From Gammaproteobacteria bacterium (GTDB lineage: Bacteria; Pseudomonadota; Gammaproteobacteria; Chromatiales; Chromatiaceae): a stretch of DNA of 64,000 nucleotides. Below the pieces are notes generated by a model that was not told the origin of the DNA, ran no database searches, and saw only the letters and a list, made by a program, of their open reading frames with translations. The stretch is taken from the NCBI GenBank assembly GCA_024277555.1, contig JAJRUY010000320.1, positions 12,388-76,387 on the forward strand. The letters are read 5' to 3'. Position numbers and translations under genes: made by a program. Of this stretch, positions 22,949 to 51,485 are shown piece by piece (position 1 is the first letter of the stretch; every line of letters begins with the position of its first letter).

Positions 22949-22987
22949 ACAGGTAATCAGGAAACAGGAAATCAGCAGGCATTGAGC

Positions 22988-25099
22988 ATGATCAAAAAAG
23001 TCATAAAACTACTGGAAGAAGGCAAGTTTAAACAAGTGGAAGAAATTCTGCGTCCGGTTATTAAGAAATCACCGATGGATACCGAGGCCCTGTTTCATCT
23101 TGCGCTGGCCCGGCGCGACCAGGGTGATCTCAACGAGGCCATTGAACTGATAGAACGCGCTATCAAGACCCAGCCCAGGAATGCAACTTTGTATTTTGCC
23201 CTTGGGAATATGCAATTGGCCATTCCGGATTATGACGAGGCCGAGGGTAGCTTTCTCAAGTCTACCGGCCTGGACCCGAATAATGTGGATGCTCGCACGG
23301 GCCTGGCTTTTCTGGAGATACGCCAGTCCCGCTTTAAAGCGGCTGAACATTCCCTGATGATCGCCTTGAGTATTGACCCGAACAATGTGCAGGCGTTGAT
23401 ATTCATCGGTATCGCCCTGCTGGAGCAGGGTCAGCATGATGGGGCCATTGAATACTTGCAACAAGCCGTCAAACTGAGTCCTGACAACGTTCAGGCACAG
23501 TTCTGTTTTGGCCGCGCGTTACTTACTGCCGGCAATTCCGGCTTTGCGGTCCAGTGCTTTGAGAACACTGTGAAAGCGGAACCTGAGACTGCAGAGTTCA
23601 GAGACTGGCTGGGCTGCGCCCAGCTCAATTGCGGCCAGATCAAGGAAGCGGGGGAGAGCTTTCATAAAGCGCTGCAGTTAGGCCGGGTCAATATTGAGGT
23701 GCTGACCGGGTTGGTCAAGGTTGAGACACTACAAGGCAACCGGGTAGCTGCTTTACAGATGATGGAACAGGCCGTGCAACTGGCGCCGGAGCGAAATGAC
23801 CTGTTGCTGCAGTTTACCGAAATGTTGATGGAAGGTGGCCGCCTCGACGAAGCCATCCAATGGCTGCAAAGCCTGCTTGCAACGGGCTTCGAGCCAGCGT
23901 TGGTGAGTGTGCGCCTGGCGACGGCATTTATGCAAAAAGGTGATGCAGCCCAGGCCCTGGAAACGCTGGAGCCGCTGGAACAGCAGGCGAACCAGGAAGA
24001 TGCAGTCATGGCACCAGAGACCCGCCTGATGCTGGCCTGGGCTTTGCAGGAGTGTGGTAAGAGGGAATCTTCGGTAGCGCACCTGGACATAATTTTGGCG
24101 CTCGAGAAGCCACCATTTGATGCCGTGCTGTTCCGTGCGCGGCAAATGTATGATGCGGGTGACAGCGAGGCTGTCAGGTTGTTGCGCCAGGTGCTCCAGC
24201 GCGATGATATCGGTGCAGAGCATTCCCGCCAGGCGCAGATACTGTTGGCGGCTGCGTTGGAAAAGGCTGGCGATTACAAAAGTGCTGTCATCGAATATCG
24301 TGGTTTGGCAGATCGCCCGGCCGCAGTGGCACAGATTGCAGAGCAGTTCTACCAGGGTGATGTCGTCGGTGAGGCACCGGTTTCGGCCATGGACGCAGCG
24401 GTGACTGCAGGCTGGCCCCAGCAACCGCCAGCGGATGATCGTGGAGAGCCCATATTCGCCTTCGCCTGGCCCGGGTCCGGGCGTACACGGGTACTGGCTG
24501 CGCTGGCTCAACATCCTGGCCTGCTTTTTCTGCCTGACAGTCCAAATCAGCAGGGCTCGCGCCTGATCAGGTTGACCGACCGGCAGGGGGCGAATGGCCT
24601 GGGAACTCTTGATGAGGCCAATATCAGGTTGAGCCGCCGTCACTACTGGAAAGCAACGGGGTTGGACAAGCAACTGCCTGAGAACACGCAGGTTCTTGAT
24701 ACGCTGTGGCTGAACGTTGAATTGCTGCCGGTCATTGCCAGGTATTTCCCCGGCACCACCGTGATCGTCCTGACCCGGGAACCACGCGATATGGCGGTGG
24801 CATGGATGCAGACTGGTTATCAGGACCTTGAAGCACTGGCCAGCCAGTACCAATCACAGCTGGAACTTTTGCAGCAGTGTCGCAATTCACTGCCTTTAAA
24901 ATTTATTGAAATAGAGTACGATAAACTCTGTGAAGACCCACACAACGGTTTGCAGGGTTTGCAGGCGTCGCTTGGCCTTGAGCCGGATGCAGCGGTGGTT
25001 GAACATTTCAATGCCGCCATAGCGCGGGTGCCGGCAAAGCCTGGCGACTGGAAGCACTACCGGGACGAATTGGCGACCGTGTTTGACAAGTTTGTATAA
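22988..25099 (+). CDS. TPR protein with a degenerate C-terminal sulfotransferase-like domain
   Basis: Many TPR repeats; C-terminal PIFAFAWPGSG, REPRD, YDKL..DP and WKHY echo the sulfotransferase fold. Confidence 0.75.
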   Translation: MIKKVIKLLEEGKFKQVEEILRPVIKKSPMDTEALFHLALARRDQGDLNEAIELIERAIKTQPRNATLYFALGNMQLAIPDYDEAEGSFLKSTGLDPNNVDARTGLAFLEIRQSRFKAAEHSLMIALSIDPNNVQALIFIGIALLEQGQHDGAIEYLQQAVKLSPDNVQAQFCFGRALLTAGNSGFAVQCFENTVKAEPETAEFRDWLGCAQLNCGQIKEAGESFHKALQLGRVNIEVLTGLVKVETLQGNRVAALQMMEQAVQLAPERNDLLLQFTEMLMEGGRLDEAIQWLQSLLATGFEPALVSVRLATAFMQKGDAAQALETLEPLEQQANQEDAVMAPETRLMLAWALQECGKRESSVAHLDIILALEKPPFDAVLFRARQMYDAGDSEAVRLLRQVLQRDDIGAEHSRQAQILLAAALEKAGDYKSAVIEYRGLADRPAAVAQIAEQFYQGDVVGEAPVSAMDAAVTAGWPQQPPADDRGEPIFAFAWPGSGRTRVLAALAQHPGLLFLPDSPNQQGSRLIRLTDRQGANGLGTLDEANIRLSRRHYWKATGLDKQLPENTQVLDTLWLNVELLPVIARYFPGTTVIVLTREPRDMAVAWMQTGYQDLEALASQYQSQLELLQQCRNSLPLKFIEIEYDKLCEDPHNGLQGLQASLGLEPDAAVVEHFNAAIARVPAKPGDWKHYRDELATVFDKFV

Positions 25100-25886: not shown

Positions 25887-25960
25887 GCGGGTGTAGTTCA
25901 ATGGTAGAACTTCAGCTTCCCAAGCTGACTACGTGGGTTCGATTCCCATCACCCGCTCCA
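25887..25960 (+). tRNA. tRNA-Gly(CCC)
   Basis: GCGGGTG/CACCCGC acceptor stem, anticodon arm TCAGC-TTCCCAA-GCTGA, T-loop GGTTCGATTCC, encoded 3' CCA; 74 nt. Confidence 0.97.
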
Positions 25961-26011: not shown

Positions 26012-26767
26012 CTAGTGGTGGGTGTTCAGGTGTCTCCGACGGTATTGGGCAGGTGTCATTCCGACGTGTCTTTTGAACGCGGAGTAAAAAGCTGAATTAG
26101 AATTGAACCCCACATTAAACGCTATCGTCAGTATAGCGTTGCTTTGGCTGCCGGAGCTTTCCAGTAATTTTCTGGCATGTTCAATACGGTAACGGTTCAC
26201 GTAATCAAAGAAATTTGTACCAAACCCGGAATTGATCACCTGCGACAGGATGTTGACCGAACAACCAACGGCCTCTGCCAGTTTTGGCAGGGTCAAACCA
26301 GATTCCAGGTATTCCTCTCTGGATTGCATGATCTGGTCGAGTTGTTGCTTATGTGTGAGCAGTTGGTTTTTGGTCAATCCAGACTTGGCGTATTTATTCA
26401 ATTGCTGTTTGATAGGAATATCATAGTAGTCAGTGATCGCCATCGCTTCATCACCCTTCAGGGTCATGAATTCCGCACCATGATAGGAAATGGGCTTTTC
26501 ACTTTTCTTGTTGTTCTTGTACAGAAACATTCGGTATTGGAATGCTATGGCATTTTCACTTTTCTGAATTTCACCGATCAATTCGTAGCGATGCCGGAAC
26601 GCGATAAAAAAATTGTCCAGGTTAGCAATCAGTGCGCCAGGAGAAATTTGTTTGTTCTCCGGAACATCACGATAGACTCCCCCAGCGGCGAGGTGGTCTG
26701 CTATACCCTTTGAATCTCGTTGATTCCAGGCATCAAAATAGCTTTCTACAAATTTTGACTTACGCAT
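26012..26767 (-). CDS. AraC-family regulator with N-terminal SnoaL/NTF2-like domain
   Basis: YFDAWN..D N-terminus; C-terminal LSQVIN..FFDYVNRYRIE..GFNSNSAFYSAFK..TP. Confidence 0.85.
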   Translation of the reverse strand: MRKSKFVESYFDAWNQRDSKGIADHLAAGGVYRDVPENKQISPGALIANLDNFFIAFRHRYELIGEIQKSENAIAFQYRMFLYKNNKKSEKPISYHGAEFMTLKGDEAMAITDYYDIPIKQQLNKYAKSGLTKNQLLTHKQQLDQIMQSREEYLESGLTLPKLAEAVGCSVNILSQVINSGFGTNFFDYVNRYRIEHARKLLESSGSQSNAILTIAFNVGFNSNSAFYSAFKRHVGMTPAQYRRRHLNTHH

Positions 26768-26966
26768 TCAATTGTGCTCGGAATTTTAACCGTTGCTTGG
26801 TATCCTACCGCATCCCGTTAATGAATGCTGTTTTAAAACAGGAGTCTGTCGCAGCGCATTTTTGGAGCACACCAGCAGCATAGAGTTTGATCACTGTGAA
26901 CTGCCTGTGGTATATCGGTGAGCGAGGCTGTGAATACGCGCCATAAGGAAAATCACTCAAGCTACT

Positions 26967-27698
26967 ATGCAATTTACAATTTCAGCGCGCGGTAAGGCGT
27001 CAGCAATACCCATCCAGCGGTTTATCAAGAATAATTATTCTCAAATACCACTGGAACAAATTGATAGCTTCTTTGGTTTCGCAGAGGCATCCACGCTTTA
27101 CGGCGGGCGTTTTTTCGCCAACACGGAACTCAGTCGCTATGATGTCCGTGCCTTGTACATGATGAACATCAATGTAAGGTTGCCGGTCACAAATCATTAT
27201 GTGACACCAGATGAATATGAGGAAAATCAACCTTTCCTGGAAAAATACCACCGTCCCGGCAATTCACTGATCATCACCAACGATGAACTGGCTGGGTGGA
27301 TACGCGGTGACTTTCCGGATTATCGACTGGAAGCCAGCGTCATTAAAAACCTACACACGATGAAAAAGGTGGAAGAAGCTTTTCGAATTTACGATACCGT
27401 GATCTTGCCGATGGCATCCAACGATGATGAAAAACTACTCAAGTCGATCGACAACAAGAAAAATGTCACGCTGTTTGCAAACGCAGGGTGTGCCTATACC
27501 TGTCCTGCAAAGATTTGTTACCCCAGTGTTTCAAAAGCTAACAAAACTGGTGACCAAAACCTTTTCCAATGTTCCCGGAAACTTAAAGAGCGCAACACCA
27601 TCGGTATGTATGATTTTGATTTGGAATACCTGCAATCACTTGGCTTTGAGCGCTTTAAACTATTGCGTCCACGTCAGGGTGATATGACGGGGTACTAG
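26967..27698 (+). CDS. U32 peptidase-like protein (putative Fe-S hydroxylase)
   Basis: LEASVI, FANAGCAYTCPAKIC...FQC (four Cys) and GFERFKLLR resemble U32-family hallmarks. Assigned by eye only. Confidence 0.55.
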   Translation: MQFTISARGKASAIPIQRFIKNNYSQIPLEQIDSFFGFAEASTLYGGRFFANTELSRYDVRALYMMNINVRLPVTNHYVTPDEYEENQPFLEKYHRPGNSLIITNDELAGWIRGDFPDYRLEASVIKNLHTMKKVEEAFRIYDTVILPMASNDDEKLLKSIDNKKNVTLFANAGCAYTCPAKICYPSVSKANKTGDQNLFQCSRKLKERNTIGMYDFDLEYLQSLGFERFKLLRPRQGDMTGY

Positions 27699-28258
27699 TT
27701 CGAACGGCCCAATTCCTCTGGTGGAACATAATCGAAAATAAATGTAATGCGGCTTTCTTCGCCCTTGTTCATCACGCTGTGTCTTTTCTGATTATTGATT
27801 TCATAAGCCTGGCCAGGTTGCAATTGGTGCGGCCGGCCATCGATCATGAAGCGGACCCTTCGATTGGTCGTGATCGGAACGTGTATCCGGTGACCTTTGT
27901 GAAAAGACGGGTGGGCATCAACATGCGGCATTATTTTGCCACCAGCGAGTAATTTTGCCGCCATGGCCCGGATGATGGTGCCACCCGGTGGGTAAGCCCT
28001 ACGAATGATCTCATGCATGACGGGCAAGGCTACTTCAGCGAGACGGTCCCAACCGGGCTCCTTGCAAATATCGACCTCGGGCCAATCTTCGAGTTTTGTG
28101 AAAACCAGTGCAATTGTTTCAGTTTGCCGGTGGACTTCATAGGTTTCCTGGCGATAATGGCTTTCATGCCAGGCGTCATTTTCCTGGGCCAGGATGGTTT
28201 TGGATAAAGCCGTTATATCAATCGGACCGAGTTCGCGGATACGGCCTTCAATATTCAT
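27695..28258 (-). CDS. Aspartyl/asparaginyl beta-hydroxylase domain protein (Fe(II)/2OG dioxygenase)
   Basis: IMPHVD (HxD), RIHVPITTN, EINNQKRHSVMN..RITFIFD. Confidence 0.88.
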   Translation of the reverse strand: MNIEGRIRELGPIDITALSKTILAQENDAWHESHYRQETYEVHRQTETIALVFTKLEDWPEVDICKEPGWDRLAEVALPVMHEIIRRAYPPGGTIIRAMAAKLLAGGKIMPHVDAHPSFHKGHRIHVPITTNRRVRFMIDGRPHQLQPGQAYEINNQKRHSVMNKGEESRITFIFDYVPPEELGRSN

Positions 28259-28410
28259 TGGATTCCGTGAAGCCGCTGTTTTTCTCTAACCCAGCATATT
28301 CCTTTACATTAAAGGTCATTATAATTCATCTGATTTTTGTGTCTTTCTCTATGTAGTATAAATGGTGACCTTGTGAACCGACCTTTAATCATCAACACCA
28401 AGGGCAGGAA

Positions 28411-30447
28411 ATGCAACATCAAGTGATATCGAAATCTGTTTTTGCTGAAGCACTGGAATTGATAAATTCCGGCCAACTGGCAGCAGCAGAACGTATCTGC
28501 AATAGCACTATATCGCAGTTCCCCAACGACCCCAACATCAACGGACTGCTGGGTGCATTGCTGGTGAAGATGAAAAAATATGAAGAAGCGGAGAAACTTC
28601 TTAACAAGACCATCGAACTGGCACCAACTTTTGCCAAACCCCATGAGGATCTGGGTTTCGTGTTGCTTGAACTGAACAGACCCCATGAAGCCATTGAAGC
28701 GTTGAAGAAGGCAACCCGACTTGATCCCAAACTCAACCTGGCTTTTCTAAACCTGGGCAAGGCCCTCGCCGCCGTTGGAAAAGGCAAGGAAGCAGACGCA
28801 GCATTTGAGAAGTCATTTGAATTGTCACCTGAACACAAACTGCTTGCCAGGGCAGTTGAATGTCTGCAGGCAAACCAATTTGAAGAAGCGGAAAGATTAA
28901 GCCGGGAAGTCATCAGAATTAACCCTGGTAACGTCGAAGCACTGCGCCTGATGGGAAGAATGGCGGCACGACAAAACAGGGTTGGGATCGCGGAAAGACA
29001 CTATCGCAAGGCACTGGAAGTCGCACCGGATTACACCGGTGTCATCGTTGATCTGGCAAAATTGCTTCGCGATGACGACCGTTTTGATGAGGCCATTGAA
29101 TGCTTCAGGCAGGCGATTGAAATGGAACCGGAAAATGCCCGGTTCCATGATTTGCTTGCAAACGCGCTGGCGCCAGCGGCATTGACGTATGAGGCGATCG
29201 AGGCTCATCAAAAAGCCATTGATCTAGATCCAAAGCTGGCCATTGCATGGCTCGGCCTGGGACATATGTTAAAAACGGTAGGCCGGCAGGATGAAGCTAT
29301 CGAGGCGTATCACCAGTGTTACGAGTTGGAACCGGACATCGGTGCCATCCAATGGAGCCTTGCCAACCTCAAAACCTACCACTTCACGGATGAAGAGATT
29401 AAAGATATGGAGGCAAAGATCGAACGTGACGATCTGGGGGCGGAATCGAAAGTGAATTTCTTGTTCGCACTCGCCAAGGCCTGGGAAGATAGAAAAGAAT
29501 ATGGCCGGGCATGGCGCTATTATGATGAGGGCAATTCATTGCGTCGTATCCAGGAATTATACGACCCGGTCGACACCGAGGTTATGAATGACATGATCGT
29601 TGATGTTTTCAGCCCTGAACTTCTGCAAGCGAATGCCGGTGCCGGATGTGCCGACCCATCACCCATATTTGTCATAGGCTTGCCGCGCTCCGGATCTACC
29701 TTAATTGAACAGATACTTGCCAGTCACAGCCTGGTGGAGGGCACGAGCGAATTACCTTACGTAACGCGTATTACCAGATCACTCAATAGAAACCGTGCCG
29801 ATGGTATCAATTATCCTAAGGCGGTTGCCGAACTCGATGAGAAGCATTTCGCAGCCATGGGCCAGGATTACGTCAGTTTTTGTCAAATGCACCGAACCGA
29901 AGGAAAACAGTATTTCATCGACAAAAACCCAAATAATTTTCCTGCCGTCGGATTTATTCACCTGATGCTGCCCAATGCAAAAATAATTGATGCCCGCCGT
30001 CATCCAATGGATGCCGGTTTCAGTTGTTACCGGCAATTATTTGCCAAGGGTCAGCCGTTTACTTATGACCTGACTGAAATTGGGGAATATTATCTGCAAT
30101 ATCAACGCATGATGGATTACTGGCATGAAGCCCTGCCAGGACGGGTATTAACCATGCAATACGAAGAAGTCGTCGCTGATTTTGAAAATCAGGTGCGTCG
30201 TCTGCTTGAATACTGCGGTCTTCCATTTGAGCAAGGCTGTCTGAATTTTTATGATACGGATCGCCCGGTTCGAACCGCCAGTTCGGAACAAGTACGTCAG
30301 CCTATATATTCTCAATCTGTAGGCAGATGGCGTTTATATGAACAGCACCTGGATGAGCTGAAGGAAGTTCTGCAGCCCTTGTTGCCCCGCTACGAAAAAT
30401 ACGAAGAAATCGGAAATGAGAACAAAGTCAAAGACAACGACCAGTGA
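28411..30447 (+). CDS. TPR-containing sulfotransferase
   Basis: TPR repeats; PIFVIGLPRSGSTLIEQIL (5'-PSB loop), FIDKNPNNF, RRHPMD, TASSEQVRQPIY. Confidence 0.92.
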   Translation: MQHQVISKSVFAEALELINSGQLAAAERICNSTISQFPNDPNINGLLGALLVKMKKYEEAEKLLNKTIELAPTFAKPHEDLGFVLLELNRPHEAIEALKKATRLDPKLNLAFLNLGKALAAVGKGKEADAAFEKSFELSPEHKLLARAVECLQANQFEEAERLSREVIRINPGNVEALRLMGRMAARQNRVGIAERHYRKALEVAPDYTGVIVDLAKLLRDDDRFDEAIECFRQAIEMEPENARFHDLLANALAPAALTYEAIEAHQKAIDLDPKLAIAWLGLGHMLKTVGRQDEAIEAYHQCYELEPDIGAIQWSLANLKTYHFTDEEIKDMEAKIERDDLGAESKVNFLFALAKAWEDRKEYGRAWRYYDEGNSLRRIQELYDPVDTEVMNDMIVDVFSPELLQANAGAGCADPSPIFVIGLPRSGSTLIEQILASHSLVEGTSELPYVTRITRSLNRNRADGINYPKAVAELDEKHFAAMGQDYVSFCQMHRTEGKQYFIDKNPNNFPAVGFIHLMLPNAKIIDARRHPMDAGFSCYRQLFAKGQPFTYDLTEIGEYYLQYQRMMDYWHEALPGRVLTMQYEEVVADFENQVRRLLEYCGLPFEQGCLNFYDTDRPVRTASSEQVRQPIYSQSVGRWRLYEQHLDELKEVLQPLLPRYEKYEEIGNENKVKDNDQ

Positions 30448-39149: not shown

Positions 39150-40125
39150 TGCAAGTGAGTGGGAACGAAACCCGGGAATCCGGACTGGCTCTGCGTTGTG
39201 TCCTGGTCCGTTCTTTGCACCAGCGCCCCGGTGGCATGCCGTACCAGCGCTGGAAGGCATTGTTGAAAGCGGCCTGGTCAGCGTAACCCAGCATGGCGGC
39301 AACCTGGGACAGAGTTGCACGGGTTTCCAGCAGGTAATCCACGACCAGGTCCTGACGCGTCCGGTCGACAATACCACGAAAGTCAGCCCCCAAACTGCGT
39401 AGTTCCCGCTGCAGTGTCCGTGGGTGCATAGCCAGGACATCGGCGACATTTTGCAGGGTACATCGCCCCGTAGGTAATAACTGATGTACCAGTAGCACGA
39501 CCCTGCGGAAGCGGTTGTCTCCGGTCCCGCCAAGATGGTCTCTCACGTAGTTAACCGCAATATTTCGGAACTCGGGATTGGCAGTAGGTACCGGCTTTGC
39601 CAACACCTCTTTTGGCAAGGTGAAGGCATTCAGTGAACCATCAAAATCCAGGTGAGCGCCAAAGCGGCGTTGCAATGGGCGCAAATCGTCCGCCCTGCAA
39701 TGCGTGAACTGAATATGCCCGGCGTAAAACCCCGGCCCAATCAGCATATTGAGGATGCTTTGGCCTATACCCATACTCAGCTCGTTGATCTGCCGCCTGG
39801 CGCGCAGTCCGGGAATCAACACCTCGAAAGTCAGCAGTGTGTGGCTCGAATCCGCGTCTACCAGTTGCACTGATGCGGCAGTGGTGTGTACATAGAAAAA
39901 GGTCGTGATAGCCCTCAGCGATGCAGCCACCGTATCCGAATAGTGTGCAATCAATGCCGCCGGGCCCAAAATATTCAGATCCTGGTAATAGGAAAGTCGT
40001 AAGCCGAAATCCGGGCATTCCAGCTCACGCGCACAATTTTCCAGCAACTCGATCATCGCCGCATAAGAAATCCGGTTGTCCGGCGAGGCCAGCGCAACAG
40101 GGTCTATGCCGTTCCTCCGCAGCAA
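39139..40125 (-). CDS. AraC-family regulator (OruR/Arabinose_bd_2 type), probably 5'-truncated
   Basis: DFGLRL..LG.., C-terminal HTH LAMHPRTLQREL..LGYADQAAFNNAFQRWYG. Begins at TTG with no RBS and an in-frame stop 11 codons upstream. Confidence 0.75.
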   Translation of the reverse strand: MLRRNGIDPVALASPDNRISYAAMIELLENCARELECPDFGLRLSYYQDLNILGPAALIAHYSDTVAASLRAITTFFYVHTTAASVQLVDADSSHTLLTFEVLIPGLRARRQINELSMGIGQSILNMLIGPGFYAGHIQFTHCRADDLRPLQRRFGAHLDFDGSLNAFTLPKEVLAKPVPTANPEFRNIAVNYVRDHLGGTGDNRFRRVVLLVHQLLPTGRCTLQNVADVLAMHPRTLQRELRSLGADFRGIVDRTRQDLVVDYLLETRATLSQVAAMLGYADQAAFNNAFQRWYGMPPGRWCKERTRTQRRASPDSRVSFPLTCTII

Positions 40126-40163
40126 GCGCAGAAAATATTTTCCCCCATCAAACCGTCAAGTCA

Positions 40164-42626
40164 TTGGGACAAATCGGCTACGAAGAAGACAGCTGGGGTG
40201 TCGGCGTTTCCGGCGTGGTGAATGACCCTTCGCCGTTTCCGCGGATCAACCGATTAAGGGATTGGTACCTCGACGAATGCCCTTGTACCATTGATGCTGA
40301 GAGGGCTGTGTTGCTTACTGAAGCCTACAAAAAATTTGAGAACGAACCCCAACTGATCAAGGTCGCCAGAGCATTGGCCCATGTGATGCGCAATGTTACG
40401 CTGCACATTGTTGATGGTCAGTTGCTGGTCGGCGACAGCGCTGCACCACCCAAGTCCTGCCCGATCTATCCGGAATTCTCCTACTCGTGGATCGCTAACG
40501 AATTGAGTGAGTTTCCGCCCCGCGAACGGCCGAACAACCGCTATGACTACAACGACGACACCGAGAGACAATTGCTGGAAATCACGGATTACTGGCAAGG
40601 CAAAACGGTATCCGACAGCATACTTGACCGCATGACGCCGGAAGAGATGAAGGGCGACTTCATGGGCATTATGCTGTACTCCACGAGTCTCTATCACATC
40701 GCTGGCGTGGGACACCTGGTTCCCGACTTCGACACGCTCTTAAAGAATGGTTACGGGGGCTTGCAGCAGGATGTACAGGACCGGCTCAACGCCCTCACCG
40801 GTGATGACCCGGATACAGAAGAACAACGCCATTTCTACCATGCCCAACTTATTACGCTGGACGCGACGATTGACTACATCAGGCGATACGCCGCGCTGGC
40901 CCGGGAAAAAGCTAATACTGCAGGTGGCCAGCGCCGCGATGAACTTCTGCGAATGGCGGACAATATCGAATCGATCTCCACCAATCCGCCGGAGACTTTC
41001 TGGCAGGCATACCAACTGGTGCATTTCGCCTGGAGTATCATCCAGATCGAGTCCAACGGTCACTCGGTCTCTTGGGGCAGGTTGGACCAGACCTTGTATC
41101 CATTCTTCCTCAAGGACCTGGCCCAGGGCACTGCCAGTCGCGAGTTCATGCAGGAAGTGATCGAATGTCACGCGCCGCTGTGTGCCAGTTTCATGAAACT
41201 ACGCGATTGGGTAACCACCCAGGCCAACAGTGGACGGGGACTGGGCACAATGACAGTGACGCTGGGGGGTGTGGACGCCGACGGCAATGACGCAAGCAAC
41301 GAGCTTTCCGGCATGTTCATAGACATGGTCGCGCACACTCGTCTGGGATATCCCTGGACTGCTGCCCGCTTCCATGAGAACACACCGGAGTGGTTCTCGG
41401 CTAAAGTGGCCAAGGCCATGCGCATGGGCACCGGCGAGCCGAAGATTTTTAGTGACCAGGTCATCATCCCAACGATGAAGCTGCGGGGTATTTCCGATGA
41501 AGACGCCCACAATTATGCCATTGTCGGTTGCGTTGAATTGAGCGTTCCCGGACGAGAGTATGGCTGGCACGATTCAGCTTATTTCAGCATTGCACGGGTG
41601 TTGGAGCTGGCGATTAATGATGGTTACGCCATCGGCCATGAGGACAAGGGCCGGCTGGGACCGGCAACCGGTAACCTGGAAGACTTTCAGTTTTTCGAAG
41701 AAGTGCAAAAAGCCTACGAGGAGCAAATGGCTTACTGGGTTGAGACGCAGGCCCGCAGCACGGACATCATGGATGACGTGCATCGTGAAATGAAACCGCT
41801 GCCCTATCTGTCTTTGTTGATTGAGGGGTGTACCGAAACTGGAAAAGATGTCAACACCGGAGCCGCTCCCTACAACTTCACCGGCCCCCAGGCGACTGGC
41901 GTTGCCTCAACGGCCGACAGTCTGGCCGTGATCAAGCAACTGGTATTTGAAGAGAAGAAGGTCAGCGCCGGCGAGCTGATGGACGCGATCAAGTCAGACT
42001 GGGAGGGGTTCGACGCCCTGTATCACCTGGTCAACAGCGACAAGATGCACCAGTACGGCAATGATGATGATTACGCTGATGAACTGGCCATCTACGCAAC
42101 GGATGTCTATTGTGACAAGGTTGAAGGAAGGCCGAACCCACGAGGTGGCATCTACCAGCCAGGCGTGTACACGGTCTCTGCCAATGTGCCTTTCGGTATG
42201 GTACAGGCGGCTTCACCTGACGGACGCAAGGCTCACGAGCCGTTGTCTGACTGTATCGGACCCGTTCACACCTATGTTGGTTCGCACGACCGCAAGGGTC
42301 CCACTGCGGTGATCAAATCCGCCAGCAAGCTCCACCAGCAGCGGATGTCCAACGGAACACTACTCAACCTGCGGTTCTGCCCCAGCAGTCTCTGCGGGGA
42401 AAGTGGTGTCAAGAACCTGGTGTCTCTGGCCACAGCCTACTTCAGGAAAGGCATGCACATGCAGATCAATGTTCTCGGCCGCGAATTGCTGGAAGACGCT
42501 TACCAGCACCCCGAGAAGTATCGTGGGCTCATGGTGCGGGTTGCGGGGTACAGCGCCCAATGGTCCGATCTTAGCGATGAACTGCGCCGGGATATCATGA
42601 CCCGAACAGAGATGTCCTTCGACTGA
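40164..42626 (+). CDS. Glycyl radical enzyme (PFL2/diol dehydratase-like); start codon unresolved
   Basis: Gly loop LMVRVAGYSA, Cys loop GCVE, GVGH, ESNGHS, GWHDSA, YTVSAN. The track start at 39921 lies inside the antisense araC gene. Confidence 0.9.
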   Translation: MGQIGYEEDSWGVGVSGVVNDPSPFPRINRLRDWYLDECPCTIDAERAVLLTEAYKKFENEPQLIKVARALAHVMRNVTLHIVDGQLLVGDSAAPPKSCPIYPEFSYSWIANELSEFPPRERPNNRYDYNDDTERQLLEITDYWQGKTVSDSILDRMTPEEMKGDFMGIMLYSTSLYHIAGVGHLVPDFDTLLKNGYGGLQQDVQDRLNALTGDDPDTEEQRHFYHAQLITLDATIDYIRRYAALAREKANTAGGQRRDELLRMADNIESISTNPPETFWQAYQLVHFAWSIIQIESNGHSVSWGRLDQTLYPFFLKDLAQGTASREFMQEVIECHAPLCASFMKLRDWVTTQANSGRGLGTMTVTLGGVDADGNDASNELSGMFIDMVAHTRLGYPWTAARFHENTPEWFSAKVAKAMRMGTGEPKIFSDQVIIPTMKLRGISDEDAHNYAIVGCVELSVPGREYGWHDSAYFSIARVLELAINDGYAIGHEDKGRLGPATGNLEDFQFFEEVQKAYEEQMAYWVETQARSTDIMDDVHREMKPLPYLSLLIEGCTETGKDVNTGAAPYNFTGPQATGVASTADSLAVIKQLVFEEKKVSAGELMDAIKSDWEGFDALYHLVNSDKMHQYGNDDDYADELAIYATDVYCDKVEGRPNPRGGIYQPGVYTVSANVPFGMVQAASPDGRKAHEPLSDCIGPVHTYVGSHDRKGPTAVIKSASKLHQQRMSNGTLLNLRFCPSSLCGESGVKNLVSLATAYFRKGMHMQINVLGRELLEDAYQHPEKYRGLMVRVAGYSAQWSDLSDELRRDIMTRTEMSFD

Positions 42627-42717
42627 AAGGGCTGCCAGGGTCATGTTTTGCGAAGTTCATGAAGCATCGGGAACCGGGAGCGCCGCACTGTCAGGAGAGG
42701 CGGCGCAGAACCACATC

Positions 42718-43695
42718 ATGATGACAGAATACGACACCGGGCTAACCGGAACGGTGTTCGACATCCAACGCTTCAGCGTACATGACGGGCCGGGTATCAG
42801 GACGGTGGTCTTTATCAAGGGTTGCTCCCTGCGTTGCATCTGGTGCAGTAATCCCGAGAGCATAAAACGAAGACCGCAGATCGGAATCTACCCGGACCGC
42901 TGTATCGGCACCGGTAAGTGTGGCGAGTGTCTTGAAGCTGTCCCCGCTGCCGACCTGTTAATCGTAAAGGAGCGCAAGGTCGTCGGCTTGAATACCGATC
43001 GACCGGAAGTTTGCCTGCCGTGCGCCGCAGTCTGCCCGACCGGTGCCCTCAAGGTCTGGGGCGAGAAGACCACGGTGGGTGAAGTCATGACAGAGGTGCT
43101 GTCGGACCGGCAGTTTTACGAGGAATCCGGTGGCGGCCTGACACTGTCTGGCGGAGAATCACTCATCCAGGCCCGGTTTGCCGTTGAACTATTGAAAGCG
43201 GCCCATGTGGAGGGGTTAAATACCTGCGTTGAAACCGCACTGAATTACGACGCAGAGGTTCTCGACAAGGCCCTTCCCTATATGGATCTGGCTTATTGCG
43301 ATTTGAAACACATGGACTCCGGGGCCCACAAACGCTTTACCGGCGTTGCCAATGAACGGATTCTCGAAAACCTGAAGAAAATCGTTGATTCAGGTACGCG
43401 CGTGGTCATCCGCATACCGGTTGTTCCCGGGCACAACGGTACCGAGGAGAACCTAAGGGCAACGGCAAAATTCCTGGTCGATGACATCGGTGGCAACGTG
43501 GTCCAGATTCAGCTGTTGCCGTTCCGCAAGCTGGGCGTTGAGAAATACGCTGCACTCGGAATGCCTTATCCAATGAAAGACTTTGAGGCACCGCCGCGCG
43601 ACGTATGGGAACGGGATATCCGGCAGTTCGCCGCTATGATGTCCGCCTACGGACTTAATGCAGTCGCCGGCTCCGGGGCCAGAATCCCAAAATAG
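42718..43695 (+). CDS. Glycyl-radical enzyme activating enzyme (radical SAM)
   Basis: FDIQRFSVHDGPGIRT, GCSLRCIWCSNPES (CxxxCxxC), ferredoxin-like insert CIGTGKCGEC...CLPCAAVCP, GGGLTLSGGE. Start could be 42643, 42718 or 42721. Confidence 0.93.
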   Translation: MMTEYDTGLTGTVFDIQRFSVHDGPGIRTVVFIKGCSLRCIWCSNPESIKRRPQIGIYPDRCIGTGKCGECLEAVPAADLLIVKERKVVGLNTDRPEVCLPCAAVCPTGALKVWGEKTTVGEVMTEVLSDRQFYEESGGGLTLSGGESLIQARFAVELLKAAHVEGLNTCVETALNYDAEVLDKALPYMDLAYCDLKHMDSGAHKRFTGVANERILENLKKIVDSGTRVVIRIPVVPGHNGTEENLRATAKFLVDDIGGNVVQIQLLPFRKLGVEKYAALGMPYPMKDFEAPPRDVWERDIRQFAAMMSAYGLNAVAGSGARIPK

Positions 43696-48297: not shown

Positions 48298-49332
48298 TCA
48301 TTTCTCCCGGGTGTTGCGTTCATAGTGTTGCATGCGGTAAGTCCTGGGTGGCACTCCGGACCAGCGTTTAAAGGCATGGGTGAAATTACCGGGTTCGGTA
48401 TAGCCGAGGAGTTCCGCAATCTGATCCAGCCTGAAGTTGGTGGTCAGCAAATAGTTGCTGGCCAGGCCAAATCGAATCTCGTTGACCAGTTTCTGAAATT
48501 TGGTGTTATGCGCAGTCAGGTGGCGGCGCAAAGTGCGCGACGACATGTGCATTTTTTCAGCGATGCTGTCGATATCCGGAAAGTAACCTGGCTGTGAAAG
48601 GATGGCGTAACGCACATCATCCACCAGGTTGCCTTGCTTGCTGAGCTTTGAAATCAACAATTCACATTGCTGGATGCATAGTTCTCTCGACTCCTTGCTG
48701 GTGTCACTGACGGTTCTGTCCAATACCTCAGCGGGTATCACCATTTCGTTAAACGGGCGGCCAAAATTAACCGGGCAGTCAAAATGTTTTGCATAGCAAG
48801 AGGGGGATTCACCGCCGGAATGGACGAAGTTGATTTCGATGACAGGCAGGCTGCCTCGTACCAGTTCCTGGTATATCAGGTGAATGGCCGAGACTTCACG
48901 ATCGGACATCACGTTCAACAAGTCCCCATAATCCATTAACGGTGCCATCCGGTGAGTTGCGGTGCCTCCCTGTTCAATCAATTCGTGCCTGAAGCAGGTA
49001 AATGAAAGGTTGACCAGCCGCAGGCCCAGGTGAACGGCCTGGCGCAGGGTCCTGGCACTCATCATGGCAAATCCGAACATTCCGTAATCGGCAACGTGTA
49101 TTGCGCTCCCTAGCGCAAGCCCCAGGTACCGGTCGGCACTCAACTCCCGGATGTTTTGGCAGAACCGCAGTAGTTGTCCCAGGTAAATTCGTGAACTGCC
49201 GTCCTGCAATGTTTGTTTGCTGATGCCAGTGCCAATCAGGCATTGATCCAGGTTCAACAAATGGCTGTCGATATAGCGCAACGGGGCGGCCAGGCTGGAT
49301 ACGGAATGTTGAATCTGTCGATCAGAAGGCAT
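48298..49332 (-). CDS. AraC-family regulator (Arabinose_bd_2 type)
   Basis: YGMFGFAMMSA.TL; HTH MSSRTLRRHL..LGYTEPGNFTHAFKRWSG. Confidence 0.9.
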   Translation of the reverse strand: MPSDRQIQHSVSSLAAPLRYIDSHLLNLDQCLIGTGISKQTLQDGSSRIYLGQLLRFCQNIRELSADRYLGLALGSAIHVADYGMFGFAMMSARTLRQAVHLGLRLVNLSFTCFRHELIEQGGTATHRMAPLMDYGDLLNVMSDREVSAIHLIYQELVRGSLPVIEINFVHSGGESPSCYAKHFDCPVNFGRPFNEMVIPAEVLDRTVSDTSKESRELCIQQCELLISKLSKQGNLVDDVRYAILSQPGYFPDIDSIAEKMHMSSRTLRRHLTAHNTKFQKLVNEIRFGLASNYLLTTNFRLDQIAELLGYTEPGNFTHAFKRWSGVPPRTYRMQHYERNTREK

Positions 49333-49397
49333 GGCTGAGACATATTCTGACTATCGGACAGACATATTAGGATAGCTGTCCGATATTCACAAGTTTT
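49222..49397. repeat. Direct repeat copy 1 (176 bp; araC 5' end plus upstream region)
   Basis: Matches 51226-51401 with 5 substitutions by manual alignment. Confidence 0.95.
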
Positions 49398-49434
49398 CAG
49401 CTTTGTGTCAGTGGAAATGATACTGCTTGATACG

Positions 49435-49933: not shown

Positions 49934-51100
49934 TCAAGCTCCAAAAAAACTGAGCCAGTTACTTAGCTGTATGTCCTTGAACACGCTTTCATTTATGCCG
50001 GAGTAAATCAGGCTCCCTTTAATTTCTGCTGGAAGGACTTCATCACCCTGCAACTTATTAAGATACAGGATGTTTGCTATAAAACTGCTGTGAAATGTTT
50101 CACTTGATTTTATTTCTATCGGGAATAGAAAGGTGGATCGATCCTCAATCAAATCAACTTCATGACCTTTCTGATCACGCCAAAAATAGAGGTTGACTTC
50201 GGTTCCGGAATTGTTGAGTTTTTTCAAGTATTCACTCACCACAAAGTTTTCAAATATGTTGCCTCTCAAGGGATGTGTATCAAGTTGATCCATTGAATTG
50301 ATCCCCAGCAAGTAACACAGCAAGCCCGTGTCATGGAAGTACAACTTTGGAGTTTTGACAATTCGCTTATTGTAATTATTGAAATGGGGAGAGAGAGTGA
50401 AGCATATATACGTAGAATTTAATGCTGAAATCCATTCCGAAATAGTGGGACTGCTTACGCCCACTTCATTTGAAAGTGAGGATGCGTTAATTAACTGACC
50501 AACGCGGCCAGCAGCCAGTTTTACAAATTTTTCGAATAAGTCAATTTTTGTAATATTTGTTAATAAGCGAATATCTTTTTCGACATAAAGCTGGAAATAG
50601 TTTTTTAACCATTTTGTTGGATTAAGCTGTGAATTGTATATCCGCGGGTAGCCACCATGAAACAGAAACTCATTCAGGGTAAAACCGGGGTTATGTTTGA
50701 TAATTTCAGATACAGCTAGCGGATGCAGGTGAAATAGCTCTGTTCGGCCCGCCAGTGTCTGGGTAATCGAATCAACCAGAAGAAGGCCGTTAGATCCTGT
50801 CAAAACAAATTTATTTTGATTCCCTGGTTCATCAACAATGGTTTGTATATAAGAACTGAGCTCAGGAACACGCTGAAATTCGTCAAGAATACAGTGTGTG
50901 GAAAGTTGATTGAGAAACCCCCTCGGATCAGATCTGGCCATCTCACGAACATCCGGATCTTCAAGAGATCGATAATCGTATTGGCTAAATAGTTTTCGTA
51001 CCAGCGTGGTCTTGCCAGATTGACGCGGACCCAGAAGTGTTAACACCGGATAGCTTTCAAGTGATTGGGTCAGTTGCTCTGAGATTGATCGCTCATACAT
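49934..51100 (-). CDS. AAA_14 ATPase with wHTH and DUF4143 (PD-(D/E)xK-like) domain
   Basis: Walker A GPRQSGKTT, Walker B ILDEFQ, LTGS, LAGR, GGYP, PKLYFHDTGL, EVDLI..IEIKS; visibly AT-rich. Confidence 0.92.
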   Translation of the reverse strand: MYERSISEQLTQSLESYPVLTLLGPRQSGKTTLVRKLFSQYDYRSLEDPDVREMARSDPRGFLNQLSTHCILDEFQRVPELSSYIQTIVDEPGNQNKFVLTGSNGLLLVDSITQTLAGRTELFHLHPLAVSEIIKHNPGFTLNEFLFHGGYPRIYNSQLNPTKWLKNYFQLYVEKDIRLLTNITKIDLFEKFVKLAAGRVGQLINASSLSNEVGVSSPTISEWISALNSTYICFTLSPHFNNYNKRIVKTPKLYFHDTGLLCYLLGINSMDQLDTHPLRGNIFENFVVSEYLKKLNNSGTEVNLYFWRDQKGHEVDLIEDRSTFLFPIEIKSSETFHSSFIANILYLNKLQGDEVLPAEIKGSLIYSGINESVFKDIQLSNWLSFFGA

Positions 51101-51225: not shown

Positions 51226-51401
51226 GATGCCAGTGCCAATCAGGCATTGATTCAGGTTCAACAAATGGCTGTCGATATAGCGCAACGGGGCGGCCAGGCT
51301 GGATATGGAATGTTGAATCTGGCGATCAGACGGCATGACTGAGACATATTCTGACTATCGGACAGACATATTAGGATAGCTGTCCGATATTCACAAGTTT
51401 T
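51226..51401. repeat. Direct repeat copy 2 (orphan araC 5' end, 37 codons, plus divergent regulatory region)
   Basis: Matches 49222-49397; ORF 51070..51336 begins MPSDRQIQHSISSLAAPLRYIDSHLLNL and then diverges. Confidence 0.95.
51356..51389. promoter_or_regulatory. Candidate AraC binding site (also present at 49352-49385)
   Basis: TATCGGACAG-N14-CTGTCCGATA perfect inverted repeat, overlapped by an AGACATATT direct repeat 22 bp apart; lies between the araC start and the divergent operon. Confidence 0.55.
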
Positions 51402-51485
51402 AAGCCGAATCAAACATTCTTCATTTTTTCAGCCAGTTATATGATGAATGCCTTGAATTTATAACTATGAAGCTTGGAGTAACCC

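Follow-up and report, generated by a model that had tools for sequence, protein, structure and literature searches.

A predicted U32-fold protein family outside current domain catalogues is linked to sulfotransferases in bacteria and phages

The closest described counterparts of the protein reported here are the U32 proteins of Escherichia coli, UbiU/UbiV, TrhP and RlhA (Pfam family PF01136; fold of Mk0906), for which every reaction described so far targets a carbon of a ring; the residues that beta-hydroxylases modify are Pro, Asp or Asn (PMC2938197). UbiU and UbiV bind [4Fe-4S] via four cysteines, and some U32 subfamilies are without the cluster motif (PMC6747719). Prephenate is the oxygen donor for UbiUV, which when expressed also works in air and whose direct activity is still unproven (PMC10990095); according to the relevant sections of PMC10990095 and PMC11574389, direct in vitro hydroxylase activity has been obtained for no U32 protein, one reason being that the known substrates are either a membrane lipid or RNA. 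The closest described gene neighbourhoods are the clusters of beta-hydroxylases and sulfotransferases for which Iyer et al. 2010 (PMC2938197) proposed hydroxylation followed by sulfation, these proposals being predictions. We analyzed a stretch of 64,000 nucleotides (the window; contig JAJRUY010000320.1 of assembly GCA_024277555.1, positions 12,388 to 76,387) in which the gene for a 243-amino-acid protein, here called U32-like, lies in a block with genes for a SnoaL-AraC regulator, an Asp/Asn beta-hydroxylase-family oxygenase (AspH) and a sulfotransferase with TPR repeats (Table 1). The U32-like protein represents an uncatalogued family of predicted U32 fold whose link to sulfotransferases holds but is not obligatory, and AspH is an optional, occasional partner.

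No Pfam or NCBIfam model, PF01136 (Peptidase U32) included, matched the 243-amino-acid protein above cut-off, and searching PDB sequences with the protein or with either of two alignments gave no significant hit. Its AlphaFold2 model, built from 93 sequences, reached a pLDDT (predicted local distance difference test) of 96.3, and the top Foldseek match of this predicted structure was the U32 protein Mk0906 (PDB 5D88; E 8.5e-9, TM score 0.67), with the second match at E 3.0e-4. VIA likewise aligned 216 residues of the model with 5D88 (Z 17.2, root-mean-square deviation 3.5), the next barrel standing at Z 11.0. Phosphosulfolactate synthase (Z 11.0) sits among unrelated barrels and was not followed as a lead. 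When profiles were compared using small TrhP, UbiU and UbiV alignments, global mode gave nothing and the N-terminal half of the protein aligned weakly with UbiU and TrhP. Some clusters among the protein's atlas neighbours have PF01136 on 13% of their members, which we treat as a lead only. A preliminary description of this DNA had called the protein U32-like by eye, and the modeled fold bears that call out. We conclude that the protein shares, as far as a predicted structure can tell, the fold of U32 proteins and that its mode of action is probably theirs too. It falls outside PF01136 as that family is defined, and its own family (1003 proteins at 90% clustering; 341 representatives at 50% clustering, E≤0.001) appears from the model to form an uncatalogued U32-fold branch.

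The sole cysteines of the protein, C175, C179, C184 and C202, fall in the same barrel region as those of UbiV. After 47 partial sequences had been excluded from 279, the four cysteine columns were 99-100% conserved among the 232 remaining near-full-length domains, 219 of which contain the CX3CX4C motif. Further conserved residues are R8, Y45-G-G-R48, N99, S124, F170 and K231. The C-x3-C-x4-C...C pattern and the SVI and FK motifs picked out in the preliminary description are all present; the protein combines predicted U32/TIM-barrel similarity with a conserved cysteine set.

The tie to sulfotransferases that had been proposed from the window's gene order is borne out by repeated fusions and by neighborhoods. 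Among the 150 best representatives of the family, 23 are at least 400 amino acids long; all 23 were scanned, and 21 contain a sulfotransferase domain (Pfam Sulfotransfer_1, _2 or _3) at the N- or C-terminal side, the other two containing TIGR03032 (one) or TPR repeats (one). These 21 fusions comprise five architectures: 15 join the U32-like domain to Sulfotransfer_1, one is another Sulfotransfer_1 type, and the remaining five involve Sulfotransfer_3 (two C-terminal and two N-terminal) or Sulfotransfer_2 (one N-terminal). They are scattered over several parts of the FastTree tree, a distribution whose independence was not formally tested. A separate search of longer proteins again gave sulfotransferase fusions in every case (4/4), two of which share 49-54% identity with the window protein, and a search for longer homologues within 945-2695 amino acids found none.

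Gene neighborhoods point the same way in part of the family. In the window's own subclade (at least 66% identity), a TPR-sulfotransferase gene lies within 3 kb in 5 of 18 loci and at 3.5 kb in a sixth, when about 2-3% of loci would be expected given 9-14 such genes per genome; the two nearest tree relatives of the window gene have one within 1.5 kb. Relatives of the window TPR-sulfotransferase itself (42-44% identical) occur within 1.5 kb of a U32-like gene in four loci; in a fifth locus, one is adjacent or close to it. Five of the seven genome groups from our first searches have a sulfotransferase. The metagenome scan, which covered the best 80 of 478 loci, all of one clade and forming 58 groups after de-duplication (32 well-flanked, 26 short), yielded an intact sulfotransferase in 4 of the 32 well-flanked groups and a 64-amino-acid remnant in one more. 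Within 3 kb of the phage U32-like genes (32 de-duplicated groups) we found APS (adenosine 5'-phosphosulfate) kinase in 6, Trp halogenase in 4, a 2-oxoglutarate (2OG)/JmjC oxygenase in at least 12, and sulfotransferase-like genes in 10, seven of the ten calls coming from our own profile, seeded partly with the same proteins, rather than from a direct Pfam hit. The marine phage neighborhoods often include fibre-like genes.

Several further observations concern these partners. On phage contig L034 (5347-7007; L numbers designate loci and groups), a sulfotransferase-like gene comes after a tandem pair of U32-like genes. In two genomes (L010:1949-6614 and L250:1046-3004) a fusion of TIGR03032/DUF4915 with a sulfotransferase lies beside the U32-like gene, and in one protein (P0140) TIGR03032/DUF4915 is joined to the U32-like domain itself; we found no paper that names this TIGR03032/DUF4915 family. 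Annotated phage records held no match to the U32-like protein, and the plasmid search matched only the sulfotransferase half of a fusion, in a record unannotated there. Complex prediction for the U32-like protein with the sulfotransferase domain scored 0.02, which gives no verdict and was not used as evidence.

The window contig, the longest in its genome (G000), is probably mis-binned there, because it lies at the edge of that genome's tetranucleotide spread, because G000 carries a second HslU (C316) only 70% identical to the window HslU, and because the window HslU is ~70% identical to those of G000's genus but 79-82% identical to those of G803-G805, from another family. We therefore took the family of G804 (94 genomes) as the window's true relatives and discarded the G000 counts (3 U32, 8 sulfotransferase, 1 AspH), the contig apparently coming from a different organism.

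AspH orthologues were found in 44 of these 94 genomes: in 16 of the 28 that also have the U32-like gene and in 28 of the 66 that lack it (Fisher p 0.26). None was found in the flanks of 29 fetched loci of the U32-like family. We also fetched 16 AspH orthologue loci, from the 20 best of 48 matches: the gene follows that of a TonB-dependent receptor in 14, has a TPR-sulfotransferase gene near it in 2 and a U32-like gene near it in none, and the closest pair of AspH and TPR-sulfotransferase (90% and 86% identical) lacks a U32-like gene over the stretch fetched. Together, the U32-like, AspH and sulfotransferase genes occur in the window and in five groups (L013, L020, L162, L184/185 and L191). A single Sulfotransfer_3 subtype (33-55% identity) has AspH as its fusion partner in L013 and the U32-like domain in five proteins; the window TPR-sulfotransferase is only 20-25% identical to this subtype. 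The U32-like gene has a related TonB receptor gene as its immediate neighbor in L004 and L224 and in the same locus in L228, while SnoaL-AraC orthologues lie near the U32-like gene in L152, L226 and L246 and near AspH and sulfotransferase genes in L268. The regulator is thus an occasional member of the same kit of genes (TonB receptor, beta-propeller-like protein, AspH, TPR-sulfotransferase, SnoaL-AraC, U32-like gene), which has been shuffled among relatives and is not a fixed three-gene pathway. Of the gene associations expected from the window, that with sulfotransferases recurs, fused or nearby, whereas the pairing with AspH is weak, the doubly fused subtype being the best result in its favor.

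The reading that we favor, though tentatively and at somewhat less than even confidence, is that the U32-fold protein is an Fe-S protein that hydroxylates without O2, that the partner sulfotransferase sulfates the product and that AspH is optional and acts on a different carbon. In such a scheme, C175, C179, C184 and C202 would hold a [4Fe-4S] cluster and prephenate would be the oxygen donor, as for UbiUV, perhaps bound by the conserved R8, R48, K164 and K231. The carbon attacked would be on an aromatic ring, because all described U32-linked reactions act on rings, and could belong to a phenol or indole or, within a protein or peptide, to the side chain of Tyr, Trp or Phe. The TPR-sulfotransferase would then sulfate the new hydroxyl with 3'-phosphoadenosine 5'-phosphosulfate (PAPS) made elsewhere in the genome. 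Judging from the neighbors, the likeliest targets would be exported or surface proteins (the TonB receptor, IPTL-CTERM-type proteins, phage fibres), their modification taking place in the cytoplasm. AspH would act in parallel and with O2, on another carbon because beta-hydroxylases act on Pro, Asp or Asn; by this analogy, parallel tailoring of different carbons seems likelier than two routes to one hydroxyl. A bolder version, in which this separate branch, with a four-cysteine motif of its own, hydroxylates proteins or peptides without O2 via prephenate for sulfation by fused or neighboring sulfotransferases and so provides the first protein-modifying U32 chemistry, acting on bacterial surface proteins and marine-phage fibres, we consider doubtful.

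A number of results weigh against this reading. The described U32 cysteine spacings are CX6CX15CX3/4C, with CX6CX16CX38C in UbiU and CXnCX12CX3C in UbiV (PMC6747719), and the U32-like family instead has CX3CX4CX17C. The Glu before the first Cys that is essential in TrhP (E162; PMC6599085) and RlhA (E161; PMC5727448) has no conserved counterpart, position 168 being T, R, I or V in a mapping made via the weak UbiV alignment. Similarity to canonical U32 proteins was very weak in hhalign (P 0.003-0.16, probability ≤10%), and PF01136 was touched by only 2 of 93 family members at E≤0.1 (best E 0.0066). Among loci from related genomes, 5 of 33 have a sulfotransferase at a distance of up to 3 kb. A nearby sulfotransferase is missing from all 15 loci of the sister subclade of the same family, from 27 of the 32 well-flanked metagenome groups (and from all 26 short ones) and from 22 of the 32 phage groups; related loci are kin, so that the counts overstate independence. 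The partner sulfotransferases belong to several unrelated subtypes having PAPS, not the acceptor, in common. Finally, a candidate substrate gene (TonB receptor, propeller) was not found on the window's contig, which gave no match to the L004 receptor or propeller, and the window neighbors scanned include no tail-collar, collagen-like or TonB-receptor candidate.

Other explanations were weighed as well. The absence of a sulfotransferase from most bacterial loci would fit a stand-alone Fe-S ring hydroxylase of indole, phenol or a nucleobase, with sulfotransferases recruited in some lineages and the window genes sharing an island, behind a tRNA and of lower GC, but no substrate. Its neighbors agree with such an enzyme: in 14 metagenome groups the U32-like gene directly meets a tryptophanase-family gene tail to tail (e.g. 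L169:6782-8161), and in L129 (3054-4580) it is followed, in the same orientation, by a tyrosine phenol-lyase gene, both hinting at an indole or phenol substrate; in phage L041 a TET-associated glycosyltransferase comes after it. We nevertheless hold this explanation to be unlikely, as 21 of 23 long representatives are sulfotransferase fusions of five architectures, the two nearest relatives retain the TPR-sulfotransferase, and the tryptophanase link is convergent and mostly confined to one lineage. If instead the protein served the cofactor of the sulfotransferase (PAPS/APS supply or recycling, or an Fe-S redox step) and not the acceptor hydroxyl, its fusion with several unrelated subtypes and the APS kinase beside it in phages would be accounted for, and the conserved Arg and Lys could bind phosphosulfate. 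However, among the 94 related genomes APS kinase occurs in 84 and the U32-like gene in 28, six phage groups have 2OG oxygenases beside it and no sulfotransferase within 3 kb, and such chemistry is not described for U32 proteins in the literature cited, which makes cofactor service quite unlikely.

The preliminary description had taken the U32-like protein and AspH for two redundant ways, one anaerobic and one aerobic, of making a single hydroxyl that is then sulfated, as with TrhP/TrhO and UbiUV/UbiIHF. The three genes standing together in the window and five groups and the Sulfotransfer_3 subtype fused to both would suit this claim, and the host probably meets anoxia, since the contig carries a glycyl radical enzyme pair; FNR-like boxes are also somewhat enriched upstream of U32-like genes (14 of 83, against ~6 in mononucleotide shuffles), at a position not conserved in relatives. 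The wider comparison does not support the claim, and we judge it quite improbable: AspH orthologues usually sit behind a TonB receptor, neither gene was found around the other in the loci fetched, their co-occurrence is not significant, the window TPR-sulfotransferase is distant from the doubly fused subtype, and ring chemistry is set against aliphatic. It is more improbable still that the cysteines bind zinc or are structural and that the barrel works as a binding protein or a non-redox enzyme. Their spacing is indeed unlike every described U32 motif, and U32 subfamilies without a cluster motif exist (PMC6747719), but the four residues are near-invariant and located as in UbiV, and in one phage group (L065, 3613-4751) IscA-like and IscU-like genes, recognized by eye, lie 1.1-2.3 kb upstream of the U32-like gene.

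All four open reading frames of the block are intact, with the order, strands and stop-codon overlap originally described. The U32-like/AspH junction is spanned by contigs from two other public runs (X2 and X6) and the AspH/sulfotransferase intergenic stretch is crossed by contigs from runs X1, X2 and X6, which shows that assembly did not create the gene order. Three runs left the flanks of the four-gene block uncovered, and this gap was counted neither for nor against the arrangement. At the overlap, the X2 contig carries 13 additional letters; the overlap is therefore not conserved and was rejected as a functional feature. AspH keeps H112-x-D114, H160 and R170 (the Fe/2OG set), and the TPR-sulfotransferase has intact motifs at GLPRSGST (423-430), SELP (446), DKNPNN (504) and RHPMDAGFS (530), the first and last of which we take to be the 5' and 3' PAPS-binding motifs. 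The GC content of the block is 0.47, against 0.52-0.54 in the flanks on either side. Promoter and terminator scans were at chance level, and a repeat of the tRNA end that could mark an attachment site was absent among the 20 largest repeat families.

Table 1. Features of the four-gene block and its left edge, in window positions
Feature	Position	Strand	Remarks
tRNA-Gly(CCC), left edge of low-GC block	25887-25960	+	context
SnoaL-AraC regulator, 251 aa	26012-26767	-	SnoaL_2 E 1.5e-6 and HTH_18 E 1.3e-21; divergent from U32-like gene
FNR-like site, 8/10 consensus positions	26887-26900	+	upstream of U32-like gene
U32-like gene product, 243 aa	26967-27698	+	predicted U32-fold protein; predicted Fe-S, O2-independent hydroxylase; uncatalogued family
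Cysteine motif C175-x3-C179-x4-C184-x17-C202	27489-27572	+	predicted metal-cluster ligands
4-nt overlap of convergent stops (U32-like gene/AspH gene), CTAG	27695-27698		sequence
AspH: Asp/Asn beta-hydroxylase-family Fe(II)/2OG oxygenase, 187 aa	27695-28258	-	Asp_Arg_Hydrox PF05118, 44.2 bits against cut-off 22.6
TPR-sulfotransferase, 678 aa	28411-30447	+	TPR repeats and Sulfotransfer_3 PF13469, E 4.8e-48

Elsewhere in the window, across the tRNA and at host GC, a second TPR protein (22982-25099, + strand) has a degenerate sulfotransferase domain with an altered PAPS loop (PF13469 E 1.8e-10). The glycyl radical enzyme and its activase (39921-43695, + strand), closest to the (2S)-3-sulfopropanediol dehydratase HpfG (943.6 bits, cut-off 1000), suggest anaerobic metabolism in the window's organism. 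Direct repeats of 180 nt, 97% identical (49222-49401 and 51226-51405), flank an open reading frame at 49934-51100 in a low-GC stretch. Among the related loci, 11 loci or groups (L004, L223, L224, L247 and seven more) have an MTHFR-like gene near the U32-like gene, four of them at ≤75 bp. A distant relative (27% identity) with a CX6C-type motif, L012:8936-9733 of genome G147, lies beside radical SAM, YcaO-like and TfuA-like genes recognized by eye, which suggests another U32-fold branch in a peptide-modification cluster.

The U32-like family escapes Pfam, NCBIfam and PDB sequence search although it counts no fewer than 341 clusters at 50% identity, with many of them in phages; it therefore points to a tailoring step that annotation has missed in the hydroxylation/sulfation kits of bacteria and viruses. 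A single domain of 243 amino acids, with natural fusions that would mark the product by sulfation (+96 Da, 35S), offers a simple test bed for prephenate-dependent hydroxylation and its missing oxidant. We found no literature linking U32 proteins to sulfotransferases among open-access papers, where the supplements of PMC2938197 and PMC5727448 could list the family unnamed.

Like UbiU/UbiV, TrhP and RlhA, the U32-like protein has a predicted barrel with four conserved cysteines in its C-terminal part; unlike these canonical members, it falls below Pfam detection, spaces its cysteines differently, has no conserved Glu before the first of them, is a short protein without an RNA-binding or extra domain and is frequent in phages. 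The canonical partners are UbiT or RNA, whereas those of the U32-like protein are sulfotransferases and 2OG oxygenases. The neighborhoods of Iyer et al. 2010 (PMC2938197), like the window, place an AspH-family gene beside a sulfotransferase gene; they share the proposed logic of hydroxylation before sulfation, occur in phage versions too and resemble our related loci in their genes for TonB receptors, Trp halogenase and PAPS supply. In contrast to those neighborhoods, no co-encoded substrate gene was found among the window neighbors scanned, and the main text of that paper never mentions U32. As with TrhO/TrhP and UbiIHF/UbiUV (PMC6599085, PMC10990095), a U32-fold protein, here a predicted one, coexists with an O2-dependent hydroxylase. 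However, while both members of those pairs hydroxylate the same ring carbon, the O2-dependent enzyme of the window belongs to the beta-hydroxylase family and is inherited separately.

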